39,059 bases of DNA, from NCBI GenBank assembly GCA_016199215.1, contig JACQHB010000007.1, forward strand, positions 1 to 39,059. The letters run 5' to 3'. The position numbers were made by a program, and so were the translations under genes. Below, piece after piece: positions 29,633-39,059 of this stretch (the stretch's first letter is position 1; each line of letters begins with the position of its first letter). Source of the DNA: Candidatus Doudnabacteria bacterium. Lineage in GTDB: Bacteria; Patescibacteriota; Doudnabacteria; UBA920; O2-02-FULL-48-8. The notes under the pieces are model-generated. The model did not search any database. It saw only the letters and a program-made list of their open reading frames with translations, and was not told the origin of the DNA.

Positions 29633-30673
29633 ATGATCAGCAAAAGAATTTATTTGGTCTTGGGTGGGATAGCGATTTTGATCGCGCTTGCCGTGGTGGC
29701 TTTTGTTTTTGCCGTAAAAAAGTCTAAAGAAAAGCCCTCCGTCTCCCTGCCTGAAGCAAAAACAGAAGCCAGACTGCTTGCGGATGAACCGGTTATTTCT
29801 CCAATCAGCTCTTTTGACGGAGGCGCTGTGTGGTTTTTTACTCCCAAGGGGAAGTTATTCAGGGTCAACATCGACGGTTCAGGATTGACTGAAGCTGTTT
29901 TGCCGGCTGTAAGCGGAACTGTAAAAAAGGCCGATTGGCCAAGCCAAGGCAATGATTTTATCCTTACCGCGTCTGAAACGGGCGGCGATAGCAGATATTA
30001 TTACAGCAACGCTGACCAAAAATACACAAAACTTCCCGCCAATATCCAAAATTTCAATTGGCTTCCCGACTCAAGGAGAATTATTTATATTTGGCGCTCA
30101 GGCGACAATGTTCACCAGCAGCTTAATTACGCCAACGCGGACGCGTCAGGTTATAAAATTATCACGGATAAAATTTTTTGGCCCGACTTCAAGGTGATTC
30201 CCTCTCAAGACGGCAAGTCAGCGCTTTTGATCCGTTCAAAGCCGGAAGGAGACGTAAATAAAATTTATAAAGCGAATCTTGAGACCGGGGAGATAGAAAT
30301 TGTTTTAGGCGAGGGAAAAAATATCGACGCCGTATGGCTGCCAAACGGGCAGAAATTTATTTTTGTCCAAGATGCAAGTACTGTTCCTAAACTGTTTTTA
30401 TATAACCTGATAACGCATTCCCAGACGGATCTGGGATTGTCCGTCACGCTTGATAAGGTAGCGGTTGATAGAGATGGAAAATACGCGTACGCCGCGACGA
30501 GCAAAGCTGATTCTTTGGGCAGCATTTTTTACAGATTGGATTTGGCAAGCCTGAAACAGGAAGAGTTTTTCGCTCCAACATCTGAACTCCGCGTGAGAAG
30601 CTTGGGTTTGGCTTCAGACAAATTGTTTTTTGTCTCAAGCCAAGACAGTAAGCTGTACCTGATACAGAAATAG
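29633..30673 (+). CDS. Membrane-anchored TolB-like beta-propeller protein
   Basis: N-terminal TM; repeated blades WLPDSRRI, PSQDGK, WLPNGQKF, DRDGKY. Confidence 0.75.
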   Translation: MISKRIYLVLGGIAILIALAVVAFVFAVKKSKEKPSVSLPEAKTEARLLADEPVISPISSFDGGAVWFFTPKGKLFRVNIDGSGLTEAVLPAVSGTVKKADWPSQGNDFILTASETGGDSRYYYSNADQKYTKLPANIQNFNWLPDSRRIIYIWRSGDNVHQQLNYANADASGYKIITDKIFWPDFKVIPSQDGKSALLIRSKPEGDVNKIYKANLETGEIEIVLGEGKNIDAVWLPNGQKFIFVQDASTVPKLFLYNLITHSQTDLGLSVTLDKVAVDRDGKYAYAATSKADSLGSIFYRLDLASLKQEEFFAPTSELRVRSLGLASDKLFFVSSQDSKLYLIQK

Positions 30674-30680
30674 TTATACG

Positions 30681-32750
30681 CTATTCAAGGTGGATGACCC
30701 CATGTTTTTTTATTTTTTCAGCCAGCAACGGGTGATCCGTGAGCATTAAGTCCTGCTCGAGAAGCTGTTGGGCGAGCAATTTGGACCGCGCGACCAGATC
30801 AAGATTGGTCATGTTCGCTATTTTGAAGCTGTATCCTGATTGCTGGGTGCCATACAGGTCCCCGGCGCCTCTTATTTCCAGGTCTTTTTCAGCCAGTTCA
30901 AATCCGTTATTAGACGAAACCAATGCCTGTATCCTGGGATTTGTTCCGGCATTGGGATCTTCAGAAAAAAGAAAGCAATATGATTGGTGATGCAACCGTC
31001 CGACTCTTCCCCGGAACTGGTGCAGTTGCGCGAGGCCAAATCTTTCCGCCCCTTCAATCATCATCACGGTAGCGTTGGGCACATCTACCCCGACTTCGAC
31101 TACCGAAGTCGCGACCAGGATGTTGATCTTGTTTTCTTTAAATTCAAGCATAACGCTTTCCTTGTCTTTGGCAGGAATTTTTCCGTGCAGTAGGCCGATT
31201 TTTAGTTCCGGAAAGACCTGCTTGCTTAGCTTTTCATATTCCGCGGTTGCGGATTTGACGCCCAATTTATCGGACTCTTCTATTAGGGGGCAGATCACAA
31301 AAGCTTGCCGCCCATCATTGATTTGTTTTTTTATAAATTGGTAAGCGTCAGCTCTTTTGGCTTCCGGCACAAATTTTGTTTTAACCGGAAGCCTGCCGGT
31401 CGGCAGTTGGTTTAAGAGGGTAATATCCAAATCTCCATACAGGGTTAAGGCAAGCGTCCGGGGAATCGGGGTGGCGCTCATGGTTATAAGATGAGCCCTG
31501 GATGTTTGTTTTAAGGTTGAGCGCTGCTGGACTCCGAAGCGGTGCTGTTCATCGATCACAACCAATGATAAATTTTTAAACTGGACGGTTTTTTCAAGCA
31601 AAGCGTGAGTGCCCAAAATCAGTCGCGTTTGGCCTCCTGAAATTTGGGCAAGCATGGTTTGCCTAGAAACCGGATTGCCGTTGATTTTAGTTGAGGATGA
31701 CGTGAGAAGGCCCGTATTTATGCCGTCATCAAGGAACAGTTTTAGGAGGGTAAGATAATGCTGGTTGGCCAAAACCTCGGTAGGAGACAGAAGGGCGCTC
31801 TGGAGGCCGTTTTTGGCGGCAAGAAGCATGCTTAGAGCCGCTATTATGGTTTTACCGCTTCCAACATCTCCTTCCAGCAGTCGGTTTGCCGGGTAGGGTT
31901 TGGAAAAGTCCGAAAAAATGTCTTTAAGCGCTTGTTTTTGCGAATCGGTAAGATTGAAGGGCAGGCTCCTGATTTTTTGGTCAAGCAAATTTTTGGTTTG
32001 GATCTGGTATGAGGATTGGAGCTGCCTGATCTTTTTATGTTGAAGAACTTTGGTCTGGGTTTGGAAAATTTCATCAAACGCCAGGCGATTCCGGGCTTGC
32101 TTTAATTTTGTCAGGTCGGATGGGAAATGAAATGTTTTTACTGCCTGATCCTCGGGAAATAGCTTTTCTGTTTTTAGAATTTGGGGCGGAAGGTATTCCG
32201 GGATCACAGCTTTATCAAGATAGGTTTTGATAATTGTGCGTAATTGTTTCTGGGTTAATTTCGCGGTTAAGGAATAGATCGGCACGAGCCTGGCAGTATG
32301 GATTTGTTCCTGTTTTTCGATTTCGTAAATTGGGTTTTGAAACTGAAGCTTTCCGCCGGAGGCGGATCCGTTTTTGGCGGAGTTTCTCCTTAGGCTAACT
32401 TTGCCGGAAAAGATGAAATTCTCTCCTTGTTTAATGATTTTTGAAAGGAAGGGCTGGTTGAACCAAACACAAGTGATGCTTCCAGTATCATCCTCAATCA
32501 ATGCTTGTGTCATGGTTAGCCTACGGACTTTTGTCCGGAAACTGGTGGCCGAAAGAACCCTGGCTTTGACATTTGCCCATTCGTTAACTTTTAATTCCGC
32601 GATGGGGGTGAATTTAGAAAGATCCAGGTGGTTTCTGGGCAAATAAAAAAGCAGGTCCTCTAACGTCTCGATCCCTAAGTTTTTTAGCAACTTAGCGCGT
32701 TGGGGGCCAACAAGATAAAGATTTTGAACAGGAGTCGATAGTTCAAACAT
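30681..32750 (-). CDS. recG: ATP-dependent DNA helicase RecG
   Basis: VGP.RA..L..LGI, RLAFDE, RLLEGDVGSGKT, IDEQHRFGV.QR, MSATPIPRTL, AERFGLAQLHQFRGRVGR, DLEIRGAG. Confidence 0.96.
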   Translation of the reverse strand: MFELSTPVQNLYLVGPQRAKLLKNLGIETLEDLLFYLPRNHLDLSKFTPIAELKVNEWANVKARVLSATSFRTKVRRLTMTQALIEDDTGSITCVWFNQPFLSKIIKQGENFIFSGKVSLRRNSAKNGSASGGKLQFQNPIYEIEKQEQIHTARLVPIYSLTAKLTQKQLRTIIKTYLDKAVIPEYLPPQILKTEKLFPEDQAVKTFHFPSDLTKLKQARNRLAFDEIFQTQTKVLQHKKIRQLQSSYQIQTKNLLDQKIRSLPFNLTDSQKQALKDIFSDFSKPYPANRLLEGDVGSGKTIIAALSMLLAAKNGLQSALLSPTEVLANQHYLTLLKLFLDDGINTGLLTSSSTKINGNPVSRQTMLAQISGGQTRLILGTHALLEKTVQFKNLSLVVIDEQHRFGVQQRSTLKQTSRAHLITMSATPIPRTLALTLYGDLDITLLNQLPTGRLPVKTKFVPEAKRADAYQFIKKQINDGRQAFVICPLIEESDKLGVKSATAEYEKLSKQVFPELKIGLLHGKIPAKDKESVMLEFKENKINILVATSVVEVGVDVPNATVMMIEGAERFGLAQLHQFRGRVGRLHHQSYCFLFSEDPNAGTNPRIQALVSSNNGFELAEKDLEIRGAGDLYGTQQSGYSFKIANMTNLDLVARSKLLAQQLLEQDLMLTDHPLLAEKIKKHGVIHLE
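32352..32381. repeat. 30-bp REP-like palindrome in frame within recG
   Basis: TCCGCCGGAGGCGGATCCGTTTTTGGCGGA; encodes SAKNGSASGG in the wedge domain. Confidence 0.7.
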
Positions 32751-32780
32751 AAAAATAAAAAGCAGCCTTTAAGCCGCCGC

Positions 32781-32826
32781 CGCCTCGTTTCACGAGGCGA
32801 GCCTCGCCAATCTTCGATTGGCGAGG
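32781..32826. repeat. Two adjacent GC-rich hairpins (REP-like or terminator)
   Basis: CGCCTCGT-ttc-ACGAGGCG (32781-32799) and CCTCGCCAATC-ttc-GATTGGCGAGG (32802-32826). Confidence 0.7.
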
Positions 32827-32873
32827 ACCCACTAGGTATAAATTTTCAACTGGAGTTTTTAGGTCAAACATAC

Positions 32874-33056
32874 TGGTGTGGCTTTACAACCACGCTCGAA
32901 CGTATTTTAGCAAAAATTGCTGAATTTGGCGAACGCCTCCGCGCCGCCGCAAAGCGGAGGCGTGCCAAGTTTGTACTCGGGCGCAGCGGAAGGGGGGTGT
33001 GGGAGGAATTCCGCTACGCCCTCGCTTCGGCTGGTGGCGAAAAATTGGCGGCGGGC
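32874..33056 (+). repeat. Long inverted repeat arm (P'), partner at 37064-37239
   Basis: Near-identical ~42-bp and ~75-bp blocks separated by a divergent hairpin-containing middle. Confidence 0.9.
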
Positions 33057-33062
33057 GGAACT

Positions 33063-33839
33063 CTAAAAATTGAAAGGTTTTGAATTTTGCCAAATAATAT
33101 CAAACTGGCCTTTCATTGTCTTGGTAAATTCTTGGCTTTTGATAATGAACCCAAAATTTTCACGAGATGAAGAGATAAATCTCACCGTATTTTCATAGAT
33201 AGCATACCCCAAAGAAAAATCTGTTCCTTCTGGAGCTAATCTTACTTCTCGGTTATTTTGATTTCCAATTTTAAGAAAAGGATATTTTTCCAAAGACGGA
33301 ATTTGAGTACGCGGCCAAATGGTTTTTAAAGTAATATTTCTTTTTACTCTTTCATTATGAAATTCCTGGTGAAATTGCGGGGTCAGTAATTTAATTACGT
33401 CCAAAATAGGCCAATACACAGATACTGTTATATTTTGATAAAGTAGCATATCCTTCATCATTTGTTGCAGTTCCTCTCTTCCTTCGAATAATTGCAAAAT
33501 AGGTCTTAGTCGCACTTGACCTTTGCCATATATGCTTTTTAAATCCGCCATAGCTTCTCGTGCAAGAGCAAGATTTGTTTCTTGCTCAGTTAAAATTAGC
33601 TCAATTTTTTCAGGTAGTTCAACGCTATATTTTCTTATCCCACCTTTCAAAGTTTGGGTTACTAAACCTCGTTCTTTTAGTCGAGCGAGGTAATCGTACA
33701 CAGAAGTACGAGTGATATTTGCCTCGTGCGCCAATTCTGTTGCGCTAACTAACCCGCTTTCGAGTATCTTTTCAAAAATTTCTGCCTCGATCTCTTTGAG
33801 ATTAAACAGTGCGAGGATGTTCTTTAGTTTCGGAGTCAT
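33063..33839 (-). CDS. TrmB family transcriptional regulator
   Basis: HTH SATELA..ANITRTSVYDYL.RL.ERGLV; FEG.E, RVKRNI, REVR..P effector domain. Confidence 0.88.
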   Translation of the reverse strand: MTPKLKNILALFNLKEIEAEIFEKILESGLVSATELAHEANITRTSVYDYLARLKERGLVTQTLKGGIRKYSVELPEKIELILTEQETNLALAREAMADLKSIYGKGQVRLRPILQLFEGREELQQMMKDMLLYQNITVSVYWPILDVIKLLTPQFHQEFHNERVKRNITLKTIWPRTQIPSLEKYPFLKIGNQNNREVRLAPEGTDFSLGYAIYENTVRFISSSRENFGFIIKSQEFTKTMKGQFDIIWQNSKPFNF

Positions 33840-33866
33840 AGTTGTGGAATTGTTACGACAATATTT

Positions 33867-33895
33867 ACATTATCAAATTTTTTAAATAGAGTCAA
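33867..33895 (-). promoter_or_regulatory. Putative promoter of the TrmB gene in the divergent intergenic region
   Basis: Minus strand TTGACT, 17 nt, TAATGT, with TG. Confidence 0.4.
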
Positions 33896-33929
33896 TAAGG
33901 GTATTTGTTCTTTCAAAAGGAGAGAAGAC

Positions 33930-35234
33930 ATGAAAGTCCAGTTGGTCGTTCCCGCTCTTGAGGGGTTCAAATACACCCGCAAAAGCGGGTGCCCTCCTCT
34001 GGGCATTGCCAGCATCGCCTCCTACCTAAAAAGGCATGCTGACGCTGATGTAGAGATTCTGGACGGCGAGATGATTGCTGATAACAAGACAATCGTTTCT
34101 CGTATAAGCTCCGGTGCTCTCGTCGGGGTCCTTACTAAAACTCCAAACTATCCTGGAGCGGTCAGGATTGCAGAAGGAGCGAAAGCCAATGGCTGCACAG
34201 TCGTTTTTGGTGGAGTGTACGCCTCAAACATGGCTCAAGCAATCATGCAACACCGCCATACGGTAGTTGATTTCGTAGTGCGTGGTTTCGGCGAAAAACC
34301 GATGCTTCGAATTCTCGAAATGATCCGGTCAGGTCAGCAATTTCCGGAAAAACGGATTTTGCTTGAACCTGCTCCGTGTTTTGACGAGATGGGCTGGCCA
34401 AGCCGCGGGTGGTTTGACATGGAGCAGTATATCGCCAACTTCGCTGCCGATCGGCCTAGTTGGAATTTGGCTCATGGCACCAACCTTTTCACACACATGG
34501 GCTGTGTCCATAAGTGTGATTTCTGCTCGCGGATGGGCCCGTTGGGTGGAGGGGTGTACTGGCGTGAGCCAAAAAACATTTGGGCTGAAGTGCGAGAGCT
34601 GGTATCGAGCTACGGAATAGACTACGTACTTGATTTCAGTGACACACTCACCCAAAACCGGCGCTGGCTTCAGGCACTTGTTGAGGCAAGACCGTACGAC
34701 CTGGAGCATATCCGCTGGCATGTATTTGCCACCGCAAAGCGGATTCCAGACAGCATTGAGCTACTCAAACTGCTCAATGTCGCGCATGTTTTTGTCGGCG
34801 TGGAAACTGGAGACGAGCTGATATCGCAGAACGTGCTCAAAGGGAGAAGGTTCAGCCCGCAACTGGTGCGTAATGGAATCAGTCTCTTGGTTGAAGCTGG
34901 GATTCGTGTCACTCCGTCCTTTGTGTACGGCTTGCGTGGCGAAACTCCGGCGAGTATGGAACGGACATTCCGATTTGCGCAAGAACTCGTAGCACTTGCC
35001 GGAGCAGAAGAAGTCTTTGCTTCGGAGCTGATTCCTTGGCCGGGAGCACCGGCTTGGGAGACAGTTCGCCAATTCTTCGGCGGTACGGACTTGCTTGAGG
35101 TCGAAGCACTGAAAGAGGTCTGGCTTCGTGAGGTTGTTCACCTCAGTCCTGTTCACGCGCGTGAGTACGTCAACAACACGCTGGCACTCGCAAAGTATCC
35201 CATTAGCGTGCAAGGAAAGGAGGATAAGCAATGA
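33930..35234 (+). CDS. B12-binding-domain radical SAM protein
   Basis: PPLGIASIASYL, VVFGG, DFVVRGFGE, CxxxCxxC (GCVHKCDFC), FVGVETG, FVYGLRGET, P.PG.P. Confidence 0.9.
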   Translation: MKVQLVVPALEGFKYTRKSGCPPLGIASIASYLKRHADADVEILDGEMIADNKTIVSRISSGALVGVLTKTPNYPGAVRIAEGAKANGCTVVFGGVYASNMAQAIMQHRHTVVDFVVRGFGEKPMLRILEMIRSGQQFPEKRILLEPAPCFDEMGWPSRGWFDMEQYIANFAADRPSWNLAHGTNLFTHMGCVHKCDFCSRMGPLGGGVYWREPKNIWAEVRELVSSYGIDYVLDFSDTLTQNRRWLQALVEARPYDLEHIRWHVFATAKRIPDSIELLKLLNVAHVFVGVETGDELISQNVLKGRRFSPQLVRNGISLLVEAGIRVTPSFVYGLRGETPASMERTFRFAQELVALAGAEEVFASELIPWPGAPAWETVRQFFGGTDLLEVEALKEVWLREVVHLSPVHAREYVNNTLALAKYPISVQGKEDKQ

Positions 35235-35977
35235 AAATAATCCGGCCAATCTTCCTGTTCGGATGCCCGAACAGTGGAACTACAATTCTGTGGCGTGCAC
35301 TCAAGAACCATACGGACTTGAGTGGGCCTGACACGGAAGATCAGGATATCGAGGGTATGCCGAATTCCATGCGTCACCACCTCGGAAACGCCACTTTCCG
35401 ACTCTGGGCTCATCCGAAGTTTGGCCTTGCTTATTATGTAACCGAGCAGGACTACAACGAGGAGGACACCCAAAGACTTCGAACAATTTACTGCCAGTCA
35501 CTTGCGCCTGGTACAAGGCTGGTGGTGAAAAGCCCGGCGCACACGCTACGGGCTCGGCTAATACAAGCATACTTTCCCGACGCGTACTTCGTAGCCATTG
35601 TTCGGAATGGCTACGCGGTTGCAGAAGGAATTGTACGAAAGAGGAAGTACGACCCTGATCGTCCGCAATTTAAAGGTTTAACCACAACCATTGAAGAGGC
35701 GGCGGAACAGTGGTTCAGAGCGAACGTGGTGGTAGTTTCGCACCAACAGTTCTTGCGTAATTACCTCATCGTGAAGTACGAGGATTTGGTACAAAATCCA
35801 GGAACAACGCTGTATCAAATTCTCGACCACTGCGGTCTAGCCCGAACCTCCATTCAAGTCCCCAACTTCAAGCAGGATAAAAACGACGAGCAAATCGCTC
35901 GACTAACAAAGGAGGAAATCGACGCCATAACGAGAATCGCCGGGCCGATGTTGCGTCACTTCGGCTACGTTCTTTAA
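35231..35977 (+). CDS. PAPS-dependent sulfotransferase family protein
   Basis: PIFLFGCPNSGTT (5'-PSB), KSP, FPDA.F..IVRNG (3'-PB), VKYEDLV.NP, M..FGY. Confidence 0.9.
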   Translation: MKIIRPIFLFGCPNSGTTILWRALKNHTDLSGPDTEDQDIEGMPNSMRHHLGNATFRLWAHPKFGLAYYVTEQDYNEEDTQRLRTIYCQSLAPGTRLVVKSPAHTLRARLIQAYFPDAYFVAIVRNGYAVAEGIVRKRKYDPDRPQFKGLTTTIEEAAEQWFRANVVVVSHQQFLRNYLIVKYEDLVQNPGTTLYQILDHCGLARTSIQVPNFKQDKNDEQIARLTKEEIDAITRIAGPMLRHFGYVL

Positions 35978-36026
35978 GGGGCTTACAATTCACAAGATTG
36001 TGAGCCCCAACTTTTAAAAAATCATT

Positions 36027-36986
36027 ATGCAATACAAAATATTTGGTCCAACAGGTAAAAAAGTTTTTAACGTCGGTCTTGGCACTTATGGTCACGGCGA
36101 AGCATATGGCGGAATTACCAAAGAAGAATCTTTGGAGATTTTACATACTGCGGCTGAATACATAACCGAGGATGTCCATCTTCTTATTGATACTGCTCCA
36201 AGATATGGAAACGGGGAGGTAGAAATTTGGATTGGAGAATTTTTGAAAAACTATAAAAAGAATAATATCCTTGTAGCCACAAAGGGCGGAAGACATATTG
36301 AGCCCAGACGCGTGAATGAGAAAGACTTTAGTCCGAAATTTCTTCAAGCCGATTTGGAAGGAAGTTTAAAGAGGCTTGGACAAGATAATGTCTTTCTCTA
36401 TCAACTCCATAACCCATCTCTCGATATCATTACAGATGGCTCGGTATTTACCTTTTTGGAAGAGATGAGAAGGCAAGGGAAAATTCAATGGTATGGAGTA
36501 TCTATTGATACTGCTGAAGAAGGTTTGGCGGTTATTGATGTTTGTCGTAAGCGGAGATATAAAGGACTAGCGTCTCTTCAGCTTATTTATAACATTCTTC
36601 AAAAGCATATAATTGACGAACTTCAGCGACAGACAAATAATATTGACCTAGCAATTATTGCACGGGAGCCACTTCTTCGTGGCTTTTTGACTGACCTATA
36701 CGACGAAAAAGTGAATATATCAAAACTTCCTCCTGCTCCCAAAAAAGTAATTGACCTCTATGGTAAAGATAAACTATTTGCACATGTTAAAACGGTGCGT
36801 AAGTTTTTGAATGAACAAGATATTACCATGCCGCAATTGGCACTCCAATTTGTTCTTGCTCACCCTTTAATAACCACGGTAATACCGGGAATAAATAAAA
36901 AAGGGTATATTGCCTTAGATTTTTCTTTGGATAACAATAATTTGAGTTTAGAACAGGCAGAACAACTTAAAAAAATTGATGATTAA
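36027..36986 (+). CDS. Aldo/keto reductase
   Basis: GLGT, IDTAPRYGNG, VATKGG, SLKRL, LYQLHNP, GKI..YGVS, Q..YN, REPL.RGFLT, VIPG. Confidence 0.92.
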   Translation: MQYKIFGPTGKKVFNVGLGTYGHGEAYGGITKEESLEILHTAAEYITEDVHLLIDTAPRYGNGEVEIWIGEFLKNYKKNNILVATKGGRHIEPRRVNEKDFSPKFLQADLEGSLKRLGQDNVFLYQLHNPSLDIITDGSVFTFLEEMRRQGKIQWYGVSIDTAEEGLAVIDVCRKRRYKGLASLQLIYNILQKHIIDELQRQTNNIDLAIIAREPLLRGFLTDLYDEKVNISKLPPAPKKVIDLYGKDKLFAHVKTVRKFLNEQDITMPQLALQFVLAHPLITTVIPGINKKGYIALDFSLDNNNLSLEQAEQLKKIDD

Positions 36987-37063
36987 AGGGGAGTTGTTAG
37001 CTAAAAGCCGCGCGGATGGGAGGGTGGGCCAAGCGGCTTTCCTTTTTCTTATTTTGTTTTTAA

Positions 37064-37371
37064 GCCCGCCGCCAATTTTTCGCCACCAGCCGAAGCGAGG
37101 GCGTAGCGGAATTCCCCCACACCCCCTTCCGCCGCGCCCGAGCGCAGTATTGTCATTGTGCCGCGCGTAGCGCGGCTCTCTGTCATTTTTTACAAATTTT
37201 TGCTAAAATATGTTCGAGCGTGGTTGTAAAGCCACACCACTAAACAACTTTTCAATTTTTTTGAAGCCAAATTGTGGGCGGCACGAAGTGCCGCCCATTG
37301 GTTTTCCCCTGACAAATCCGCTTCGCTCGGCGCGCGCAGGCGCGCCTCGCGGTTGGCCAAAACGAGGTTCG
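37064..37371 (-). repeat. Internal inverted attP-like copy (P arm 37235-37371 plus P' arm 37064-37239)
   Basis: 37235-37371 is the reverse complement of 38923-39059 with 3 mismatches; 37064-37239 mirrors 32874-33056. Confidence 0.9.
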
Positions 37372-37431
37372 CTCTTGTGCGATTTTAAATTCTGTCTCGG
37401 ATTTGCTTTGCCCAAAATACAAAAAGAATTT

Positions 37432-37536
37432 TTGCCTTGGATATTAGGTATGATATACTTGTAATGTATCCAACTCCGCAAGTCTTCTTTTTTGATGGCC
37501 GTCTCGGTCAATTCAAGGAGACTTGAGTTGGATACA
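37432..37536 (+). promoter_or_regulatory. Putative recombinase promoter followed by a ~72-nt stem-loop leader
   Basis: TTGCCT (37432-37437), 16 nt, TATACT (37454-37459) with TG; TGTATCCAACT/AGTTGGATACA and CAAGTCTTCTT/AAGGAGACTTG stems at 37465-37536. Confidence 0.55.
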
Positions 37537-37571
37537 ACCGGGGCGGCCTTTAAAGTTTAACTAACATTTTT

Positions 37572-39059
37572 ATGCAAAAATTCTTTTTGTATGCCCGCAA
37601 GTCCACCGATGTGGAAGATAAGCAAGTTTTGAGTATTGAAGCGCAACTAACAGAATTGCGCGAGCTTGCCAAGCGTGAAAACTTGGAGGTAGTTGAGGAG
37701 TTGGTGGAGAAACAATCGGCCAAAATTCCAGGCAGACCAATTTTTAACGAAATGTTGCGAAGAATTGAAGCCGGAGAAGCTGCCGGAATTTTGGCCTGGC
37801 ATCCGGACAGATTGGCGCGCAATTCTGTTGACGGTGGAAAAATAATTTACCTTTTAGACACAGGTGGACTTGCGGGCTTGAAGTTTCCGCAGTTTTGGTA
37901 TGAAAACACCGCGCAAGGTAAATTCATGCTCAATATTGCTTTTGGGCAAAGCAAATACTATATAGACAATTTGAGCGAGAATACCAAACGAGGATTGCGC
38001 CAAAAAGTCAGACGAGGTGAATATCCCGGCCTTGCGCCTGTGGGTTATCAGAATGACCCTCGCACAAAAACCGTTGTCGTGGACAAAAAGCGAAGTGTGG
38101 TTATCCGCAAGGCCTTTGAGCTGTACGCGCAAAATAACTCTCGTTTAGAGGACATTGCCAACTTTTTGGCGCAGAATGGTATTCTCACTTCTGGTGGCAA
38201 GAAACTTCACCGAGACAGAATTTCTTTTATCCTTTCCAACCCGTTTTATTACGGACATTTTCGCTATGCTGGGGAGGTTCACGAGGGCAAGCACCAGCCA
38301 GTCGTCTCAAAGAAAATTTTTGATAAAGTCCAAGAGGTAATGAAGCAGAGAGGAAAACCTAAAACCAAAGGCAAAGTTGAAAAACCATTTGTCGGACTTT
38401 TACACTGTGATGAATGTGGCCGTATGATAACTGCCGAAATCCAGAAAGGTCATACTTATTATCGTTGCACGAAGAAAAACATTGTTTGTAGTCAGCCGTA
38501 TGTCCGTGAAGAAGAATTGGATCGGCAGTTATCTTCTCTGCTTCAAAAATTTTCTTTGAGACCGGATTGGGCGGCACAAATGGACAAAATGCTGAAAAAA
38601 GACAAAAAGGAATCCGCCCAATCCGCAACCGCTTTTGTTCAAGAGGCAGACGAAAAGACTAAGACACTAAATATCAAACTCCAGCGACTTTTAGACGGAT
38701 ATTTGGAACAAGATATTGAACGCGAAATATATCTCGAAAAGAAGCGAAATTTCATGAGTGAAAAAAAGTCGCTGGAGGAGCAAATCATCAACTTCGAACA
38801 AAAGCGGACTGGCTGGCTCGAACCGATGGCGGAATGGATAAAAGAAGCAGAATCTCTGCCTAAAATCGCACAAGAGAGCAACCTTTTCTCAAAAAAGGTT
38901 GCTGCCGAACATTTGTTCGGCTCGAACCTCGTTTTGGCCAACCGCGAGGCGCGCCTGCGCGCGCCGAGCGGAGAGGATTTGTCTGGGGAAAACCAATGGG
39001 CGGCACTTCGTGCCGCCCACAATTTGGCTTCAAAAAAATTGAAAAGTTGTTTAGTGGTG
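37572..39059 (+). CDS. Large serine recombinase (runs off the window; absent from the ORF track)
   Basis: Own translation, 496 codons with no stop: MQKFFLYARKST (catalytic Ser), WHPDRLARN, APVGY, NPFYYG, zinc ribbon CDECG...YYRC...C, coiled coil. Confidence 0.93.
   Translation, partial: MQKFFLYARKSTDVEDKQVLSIEAQLTELRELAKRENLEVVEELVEKQSAKIPGRPIFNEMLRRIEAGEAAGILAWHPDRLARNSVDGGKIIYLLDTGGLAGLKFPQFWYENTAQGKFMLNIAFGQSKYYIDNLSENTKRGLRQKVRRGEYPGLAPVGYQNDPRTKTVVVDKKRSVVIRKAFELYAQNNSRLEDIANFLAQNGILTSGGKKLHRDRISFILSNPFYYGHFRYAGEVHEGKHQPVVSKKIFDKVQEVMKQRGKPKTKGKVEKPFVGLLHCDECGRMITAEIQKGHTYYRCTKKNIVCSQPYVREEELDRQLSSLLQKFSLRPDWAAQMDKMLKKDKKESAQSATAFVQEADEKTKTLNIKLQRLLDGYLEQDIEREIYLEKKRNFMSEKKSLEEQIINFEQKRTGWLEPMAEWIKEAESLPKIAQESNLFSKKVAAEHLFGSNLVLANREARLRAPSGEDLSGENQWAALRAAHNLASKKLKSCLVV

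Follow-up and report, generated by a model that had tools for sequence, protein, structure and literature searches.

A spare attP-like site, inverted and carrying a second recombinase gene end, in a serine-recombinase island at a tRNA-Arg gene

The 39,059-nt stretch of DNA analysed here (the window) ends in an integrative island in which positions 37045-37371 are an inverted copy of the junction that arises from joining the right end of the island (38923-39059) to its left end (32871-33075). This copy is an intact spare attP-like site of the island in inverted orientation, and it contains a full inverted end of the recombinase gene: 46 codons, the core, 14 tail codons, a stop codon and a hairpin. 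We consider it roughly an even bet (probability of about 0.5) that the inverted site and its gene end are a reserve that would toggle the recombinase between a split and a whole form.

The island (32871-39059; 6.2 kb) lies at the end of a tRNA-Arg gene and carries cargo and a large serine recombinase. The window is the entire contig C5 of a source genome assembled in 16 contigs (0.52 Mb; 520,915 nt), and position 39059, at the core, is the true end of that contig. The final 40 nt of C5 are identical to the initial 40 nt of contig C1, which past this overlap encodes tRNA-Arg(GCG) on the minus strand (C1:36-111) and then tRNA-Ser(TGA). Since the overlap runs into tRNA-Arg(GCG), the right-hand core at attR, TGGTG at 39055-39059 (plus strand), is the complement of the last five bases of the tRNA, CACCA. 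The same five bases can be read directly at attL, between the chromosome and the P' arm (32874-32878, plus strand). The chromosomal left flank of the island is recG (30681-32750, minus strand; Pfam RecG_wedge, DEAD, Helicase_C and RecG_dom3_C). We found tRNA-Arg(GCG) near recG in all 11 same-family genomes examined, and in nine of them its island-free 3' end was 3-100 nt from the recG start with nothing between; in the remaining two, the tRNAs are in another orientation (L190) or a 1.4-kb gap intervenes (L198). Given that nine of 11 relatives are island-free and that the tRNA-Arg-to-recG distance in the source genome is ~6.3 kb, the island corresponds to 32871-39059 and the join of C5 to C1 is sound. 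The island therefore sits between the CCA end of tRNA-Arg(GCG) and recG, where its own large serine recombinase inserted it, and, as in a serine integrase element, hybrid sites with the shared core TGGTG bound it at both ends, while the relatives show the empty tRNA-Arg/recG site.

The chromosomal side of the left border has further structure. A 48-nt direct repeat (75% alike, 121 nt apart) has one copy over the recG start and first codons (32704-32751) and the other ending at the island's left core (32825-32872), such that the tRNA-to-recG spacer contains a second version of the recG 5' end, and GC hairpins lie between the two. On contig C1, just past tRNA-Ser(TGA), a 115-residue ORF (L004, 757-1104) was observed in an AT-rich stretch.

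A repeat search of 30000-39059 revealed that 37235-37371 and 38923-39059 are inverted copies over 137 nt (98% complementary, 3 mismatches). The left end of the island is mirrored in three collinear inverted pieces, namely, 32871-32918/37195-37242 (96%), 32963-32996/37122-37155 (79%) and 33002-33075/37045-37118 (86%), which sensitive self-BLAST merged into a single match of 32871-33075 to 37242-37045 (78% over 208 columns). We refer to the P' arm at attL as arm a (32871-33075, plus strand) and to its inverted copy as arm a' (37045-37242, minus strand); the P arm at attR is arm b (38923-39059, plus strand), which encodes recombinase residues 451-496, and its inverted copy is arm b' (37235-37371, minus strand). 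Arms a' and b' meet at an internal core on the minus strand (37235-37239; CACCA on the plus strand, the reverse complement of TGGTG). Translation, folding and alignment of arm a identified tail codons at 32879-32920 (WLYNHARTYFSKNC), a stop codon at 32921-32923, a GC hairpin within 32919-32975 and a conserved G-rich inner part, all on the plus strand. In a global alignment, the two P' arms are alike over the 48 nt closest to the core and over an inner ~95 nt, with an unrelated middle of ~55-60 nt that folds as a GC hairpin in both (z -1.9 to -3.2). Rfam searches of 32000-39059 returned sub-threshold matches only, in these arm GC hairpins. Across the 520,915-nt genome, the site has four matches only: its own position, its two partner arms and the 40 nt at the start of C1. 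Because the arms are not identical and these are the only genomic matches, the inverted copy is neither a chance repeat nor an artefact.

The arms divide the island into a cargo module (33057-37063) and a recombinase module (37372-38922, plus strand, between b' and b). Taken together, these results uphold the anatomical part of the original prediction, which had placed an intact inverted attP-like copy inside a serine-recombinase island and had described its mirrored repeats, now recovered by repeat search, global alignment and self-BLAST. It had also noted a P' arm middle of ~55 bp that differs in sequence and yet holds a GC hairpin in both copies, which alignment and folding confirmed, and had pictured the cargo and the recombinase module as each lying between inverted arms that converge on a single core, which is what we observe. 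The anatomy likewise supports its proposal that the excised circle would carry two inverted att sites. The original prediction did not include the tRNA-Arg target on contig C1, the recombinase gene end with its tail and stop inside the copy, or the outward-facing terminators of the arms.

The recombinase ORF (37572-39059, plus strand; 496 codons, open at the contig end) has the three-domain architecture of serine integrases (Resolvase, recombinase and zinc ribbon; ~450-600 residues), with Pfam matches to Resolvase (PF00239, 1.1e-21), Recombinase (PF07508, 8.8e-17) and Zn_ribbon_recom (PF13408, 1.4e-08). Residues Y12, R14, K15, S16 and T17 are invariant across 49 aligned family members (YARKSTD in the window protein), and the conserved S16 is presumably the catalytic nucleophile. 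The family is very large: of 8,000 scored database proteins, 7,990 match the recombinase at an E value of 1e-50 or better. The gene is preceded by a leader (37372-37571, plus strand) with a promoter-like site, TTGCCT-16-TATACT, at 37432-37459. Two patches of this leader are complementary to the recombinase gene (37372-37387 to 38862-38877, recognized by eye, and 37391-37417 to 37940-37966), and self-BLAST detected a weak self-palindrome at 37417-37592 (62% over 189 columns). Judged by their sequence, the patches and the palindrome may be the remains of a once complete inverted copy of the recombinase gene.

ORF and Pfam analyses identified four cargo genes: a TrmB-type helix-turn-helix regulator gene (33063-33839, minus strand), followed on the plus strand by genes for a B12-binding radical SAM enzyme (33930-35234), a sulfotransferase (35231-35977) and an aldo/keto reductase (36027-36986). 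The genes in 33930-36986 resemble a small modification or biosynthesis cassette. By Pfam, none of the four cargo genes is a replication gene, and none matches a directionality factor, a class of proteins that is diverse and often unrecognisable.

When the recombinase was compared with its own genome by tblastn, residues 451-496 were found a second time at 37372-37235 (minus strand; 93.5% over 46 residues). The same frame continues past the internal core into WLYNHARTYFSKNL and then a stop codon, such that the spare gene end, comprising residues 451-496, the tail and the stop, spans 37190-37372 (minus strand); the equivalent reading in the left arm is WLYNHARTYFSKNC, likewise followed by a stop. 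At attR, in contrast, the ORF continues for 19 codons (HPAGIEPATLGSANLRSIH, then a stop) into the antisense strand of tRNA-Arg, based on translation of C1:41-103.

We surveyed this tail in the 89 related loci that extend at least 70 nt past the upstream arm. The motif x[LIF]Y..[AV]RT.F..N was present, in one frame, in 76 of the 89 spare copies, and a stop codon followed at the same distance in 66 of these 76. Among 68 distinct sequences, variability was highest at third codon positions (0.99 bits, versus 0.70 and 0.67), and the invariant Arg was encoded by CGA in 53, AGA in nine and CGG in four. Since the motif served to select these sequences, the invariant Tyr and Arg are partly a product of construction, which does not apply to the periodicity or to the synonymous codons. 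The tail terminates 11 of the 120 best database proteins by pattern (13 by eye), and 81 of the 120 instead read through into antisense tRNA (G-I/F/V-E-P) by pattern, with several more by eye. The presence of a conserved tail in both spare copies and database proteins implies that the recombinase gene spans the attP crossover and that a complete gene requires arm b to be joined with an a-type arm (a or a'). In this island the gene is split: entry was through the site inside the gene, the tail has been lost and the ORF reads into antisense tRNA.

Tail-bearing relative P0054 was also modelled from a 49-row alignment (mean pLDDT, 65; pTM, 0.37). The tail forms a low-confidence helix in this model, with block means of 52-63, and the model does not indicate a docking place. 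Mimicry of the tRNA by the P' arm was also considered, as its conserved GCTCGAAC near the core resembles a T-loop. We read GCTCGAAC as coding instead, because its variants are synonymous Arg codons, it is four bases off the tRNA register and it does not track the target tRNA.

A script was used to classify 162 loci, consisting of 80 from species-representative genomes, 80 from metagenome contigs, the closest same-family homologue (G013:C4) and the window. Inverted arms of at least 40 nt surround the recombinase gene in 118 of the 162 loci, with a median length of 125 nt and a median identity of 99.3% (52 pairs are identical), so the second site is found in homologous islands too. The 44 loci without arms comprise 33 that are cut by contig ends and 11 that are untruncated. 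A spare copy is thus usual, albeit not universal, in related loci, and the 11 untruncated relatives that do without it indicate that the copy is not needed for island persistence. The four features that define this Patescibacteria family of tRNA-end islands (inverted arms, a tRNA 3' end at the outer arm, a second arm pair and tail codons) all occur in this island; besides the arms and tails counted above, the tRNA feature is present in 108 loci and a second arm pair in 22.

Related islands target 15 kinds of tRNA and one tmRNA (the latter identified by Rfam). Their core follows the target and accordingly varies among elements (TGGTG, TGGAG, TGGCT and TGGTA), and the core of the spare copy equals the core after arm b in loci where the arm reaches the core. 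The window enzyme and that of L028, for instance, are 86% identical in DNA, and their targets are tRNA-Arg and tRNA-Ile, respectively. In the 22 loci with an a/a' pair, the a' arm mirrors the far end of the island over 180-370 nt, and the pair encloses cargo of 1.2-5.9 kb. The two arms are at least 98% identical in 15 of these 22 loci; the 81% of this island is the lowest value. When the 22 cargos were compared, only two pairs shared any gene (tblastx, E 1e-10), and the search for different cargo that the original prediction had called for therefore found unrelated cargo between conserved arms. For the cargo described here, a clear homologue was found only for the TrmB-type gene, in one of the 161 related loci (L098, 40% identity), with weak matches of 22-29% identity in L061 and L043; the radical SAM, sulfotransferase and aldo/keto reductase genes are absent from the other 161 loci. 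This island is thus set apart from its relatives by unusual cargo and unusually diverged P' arms.

The long inverted arms also have practical consequences. Because long inverted repeats break short-read assemblies, 78 of the 162 related contigs begin within 700 nt upstream of the recombinase gene. Loci L119 and L121, in which the "arms" are 737-747 nt long and 100% identical and the flanks are of equal length, were read as palindromic assembler products and left out; contigs of this type are probably a trap for counts of "circular forms." Contigs of runs X1 and X6 at 33003/37127 show arm a meeting arm a' across 6-8 letters at a depth of 18.8-24.1, relative to ~10 for the pieces of this island itself, and some relatives seem to lack cargo and to carry a long hairpin in its place.

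We next considered the orientation of the two modules. The recombinase gene reads toward the tRNA in 108 of the 162 loci and away from it in seven (L051, L058, L061, L095, L097, L105 and L115), where the tRNA stands at the upstream arm; no tRNA was called in 47. L051 is a complete reversed island within a 120-kb contig at a tmRNA gene (L051:9273-15152), with the order tmRNA, b', gene, b, a, 3.3-kb cargo, a'. Its two arm pairs show 97% and 93% identity, and its recombinase gene is fragmented. The 3.3-kb cargo of L051 resembles ribonucleotide reductase pieces, as judged from ORF translations alone. L058 and L171 represent one element (100% over 1,623 nt) in the same chromosome (99.9% over 8,135 nt) with the module reversed, and the tRNA-side arm of L058 is the variant found upstream of the gene in L171, one that lacks an 8-nt insertion; the variant has thus moved with the module. 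Such a pattern would follow from exchange either at the core or in the outer 95 nt of the arms, and it is explained equally well by an assembler taking the wrong exit within the 95 nt that the arms share. In six of the seven reversed loci the contig stops within or at the far arm, which is the point at which a wrong path may be taken during assembly; we therefore treat the reversed state as real only for L051 and as likely but unproven for the other six.

The orientation of the cargo was compared as well. The TrmB-type gene lies beside arm a in this island and beside a' in L098, in opposite orientation to the recombinase, which fits a flipped cargo module; the two genes are too distant to exclude independent gain. 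To examine the source population, we used Logan contigs, which are built from 31-letter words and in which no run contained more than 39% of the sampled words. Runs X1 and X2 share the cargo, with no differences in any listed piece except record 6 (one difference). In one X1 contig, 37063 is linked to 33056 on the opposite strand, the pairing of a flipped cargo; because the arms are identical over 52 letters at this join, the 31-letter words are the same for both arrangements, and the contig is compatible with either. The inversion raised in the original prediction is therefore partly supported: both orientations of the recombinase module occur across the family (108 loci versus seven, plus one identical pair), and assembler choice could mimic six of the seven reversed cases.

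These observations underlie the reading that we favour, in which the inverted attP-like site and gene end act as a reserve. The recombinase module (37372-38922) and the cargo module (33057-37063) could each lie in either orientation with the junction types unchanged, and a whole gene could be obtained by two routes, either through a flip of the recombinase module or through integration via the spare site. The flip itself might be brought about by homologous exchange in the near-identical arms or by the recombinase acting at the cores. Since the serine integrases studied to date recombine attP with attB only and in no other pairing, according to the available text of PMC3783163, a core-mediated flip would need new behaviour. 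Further points count against the reserve reading: 11 untruncated relatives lack the copy, the reversed state is rare (seven of 115 classified loci), its sole complete example, L051, has a broken recombinase, and the L058/L171 pair fits a wrong assembly path equally well.

A bolder extension is that the split end and the spare inverted site together constitute a directionality switch written in DNA, which would allow an integrase to operate without a separate directionality factor. The tail would be present only in the free circle or after a module flip, such that the arrangement of the DNA would set the form of the enzyme, and this form would in turn fix the island in place or leave it mobile. 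In the portions of the literature available to us, a directionality factor fused to an integrase controls direction (PMC5737554), such fusions link the factor to the integrase C terminus, and the phiC31 directionality factor contacts the extreme C terminus of its integrase. Given these precedents, a tail that comes and goes could matter; we nevertheless regard the switch as speculative and rather unlikely.

Comparably doubtful is the view that the copy is a cis-regulatory unit, in which b' would be an insulator-terminator and the full site upstream of the promoter an operator for self-repression of the recombinase. GC hairpins with a T-tail face the core in 67 of 90 b arms, compared to three of 90 on the gene strand and none of 90 shuffled arms. 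In this island, one such terminator-like hairpin lies in b' at 37274-37298 and reads on the plus strand, and its counterpart in arm b (39020-38996, minus strand) reads in the direction of the tRNA. These core-facing hairpins belong equally to the reading that we favour, in which they give the arms an additional role: the element would replace the displaced tRNA terminator, with the arm b hairpin ending the tRNA transcript, and the copy would insulate the recombinase gene from cargo transcription. The cis-regulatory view also draws on the promoter-like site, which starts 61 nt past the arm. However, the view leaves unexplained the coding pattern of the 14 tail codons and stop past the core, the 180-370-nt a' arm that mirrors the far end of the island and the occurrence of reversed modules.

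It is less probable still that the copy is a relic with no present function, left by an inverted duplication of the gene end long ago and kept alike by gene conversion. The leader patches are complementary to the gene in descending order, as the remains of an inverted copy would be, 11 untruncated relatives have lost the copy, and the a/a' arms of this island have drifted further than any of the other 21 pairs. Nevertheless, 118 of 129 untruncated loci, with recombinases just 57-92% identical to this one, retain the copy, its core (where the arm reaches it) is the element's own even though cores differ between elements on different tRNAs, and the tail exhibits a coding pattern.

We likewise think it improbable that the main role of the copy is to serve as a cassette-exchange platform, on which related islands would swap the segment between two inverted sites or between long conserved arms. 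The diversity of the cargos between conserved arms, with only two gene-sharing pairs among 22, is what such a platform would produce, and engineered inverted attP pairs are used for exactly this purpose in MiMIC landing sites, as far as the available descriptions go. The two P' middles of this island also have their matches in the arms of separate relatives, namely, L175 and L160 for arm a and both arms of L028 and L038 for arm a'. This points to past exchange between elements. On the other hand, ordinary homologous exchange can also yield mosaic arms, the recombinase route would require a partner with two inverted attB-type sites, none of which was seen, and arrays and intermediate forms are absent. 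Of the original prediction's proposals for the spare site, exchange between related islands through the arms thus retains weak support from the mosaic P' middles, and the capture of further DNA with integron-like behaviour is not borne out: the enzyme is a serine rather than a tyrosine integrase, and the repeat search found a single cargo block with no array and no repeated cassette-end (attC-type) sites.

Finally, a misjoin or fold-back by the assembler is hardly credible, even though the end of the contig coincides with the core and breaks within the arms are common among related contigs, since the arms differ (three mismatches in b/b' and a 55-nt middle that is unrelated between a and a'), 118 loci drawn from many assemblies have the same layout, synteny in nine of 11 relatives fits the borders and contig breaks are expected at long inverted repeats.

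The reserve reading and its extension bear on questions beyond this island. Serine integrases are major tools of genome engineering, and their one-way action is generally considered to depend on a separate directionality protein. Here, the enzyme splits or completes its own gene through the reaction that it catalyses, and a second, inverted site is kept as a matter of routine. If it is true that the tail or the spare site governs direction, this would amount to a compact form of control that is new in principle. For small-genome Patescibacteria, such islands may also be a main route of accessory-gene exchange.

Among known systems, the island most closely resembles those of the large serine integrases (phiC31, Bxb1, A118/LI, SPbeta SprA and TP901-1, as well as TnpX and CcrAB), which have the same three-domain architecture and N-terminal serine block and likewise insert by short-core exchange between an element site and a chromosomal site. 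It differs from them in that its crossover lies inside the gene of its own enzyme, in that it has a second, inverted attP-like site, in that its close relatives target the CCA ends of 15 kinds of tRNA plus tmRNA, and in that Pfam recognised no directionality-factor gene among its four cargo genes. The phiC31 att sites measure 40-50 bp in the descriptions available to us, in contrast to conserved arms of 137 and ~200 nt around the core of this island.

Integration also splits the recombinase gene in the SSV1-type integrases of Sulfolobus viruses, in which attP lies inside int and only the free circle carries an intact gene. Those enzymes are tyrosine recombinases of archaeal viruses that are split deep within the gene, whereas this island loses a 14-residue tail, and we know of no spare inverted attP copy in the SSV1-type systems. 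The yeast 2-micron plasmid encodes FLP and has two FRT sites in long inverted repeats, which gives it two isomeric forms. As in the excised form envisioned here, inverted site-bearing repeats split the circle into two unique segments, one of which contains the recombinase; the yeast enzyme, however, belongs to the tyrosine recombinases and acts on a replicating plasmid, whose copy number is amplified by means of the inversion.

The serine DNA invertases Hin, Gin, Cin and Pin also invert DNA between repeats, and in phage Mu the inversion swaps the 3' end of a gene. These enzymes and PinQ, described as a serine DNA invertase in the available text of PMC12529663, resemble the present system in that a serine recombinase lies next to or within a DNA segment with inverted repeats at its borders. 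They are nonetheless small (~190 residues, with a C-terminal helix-turn-helix), act at short sites with an enhancer and swap a gene end that is not the recombinase's own, whereas the window enzyme is at least 496 residues long and includes recombinase and zinc ribbon domains. Tycheposons of Prochlorococcus, the nearest of the known tRNA-gene cargo islands, lie beside tRNA and tmRNA genes; 910 of 937 use tyrosine recombinases and a few have a large serine recombinase, and the portion of that report available to us (bioRxiv 10.1101/2020.12.28.424599) does not mention an inverted internal site.

In the literature searched, which excluded subscription journals and supplements, we found neither a natural element with an inverted internal attP nor an account of this island family, and "inverted attP" referred to engineered landing sites only. 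The large serine recombinase and the integrative island itself belong to known classes; what is new is a recombinase gene that spans attP, a general targeting of tRNA ends and an inverted spare site.
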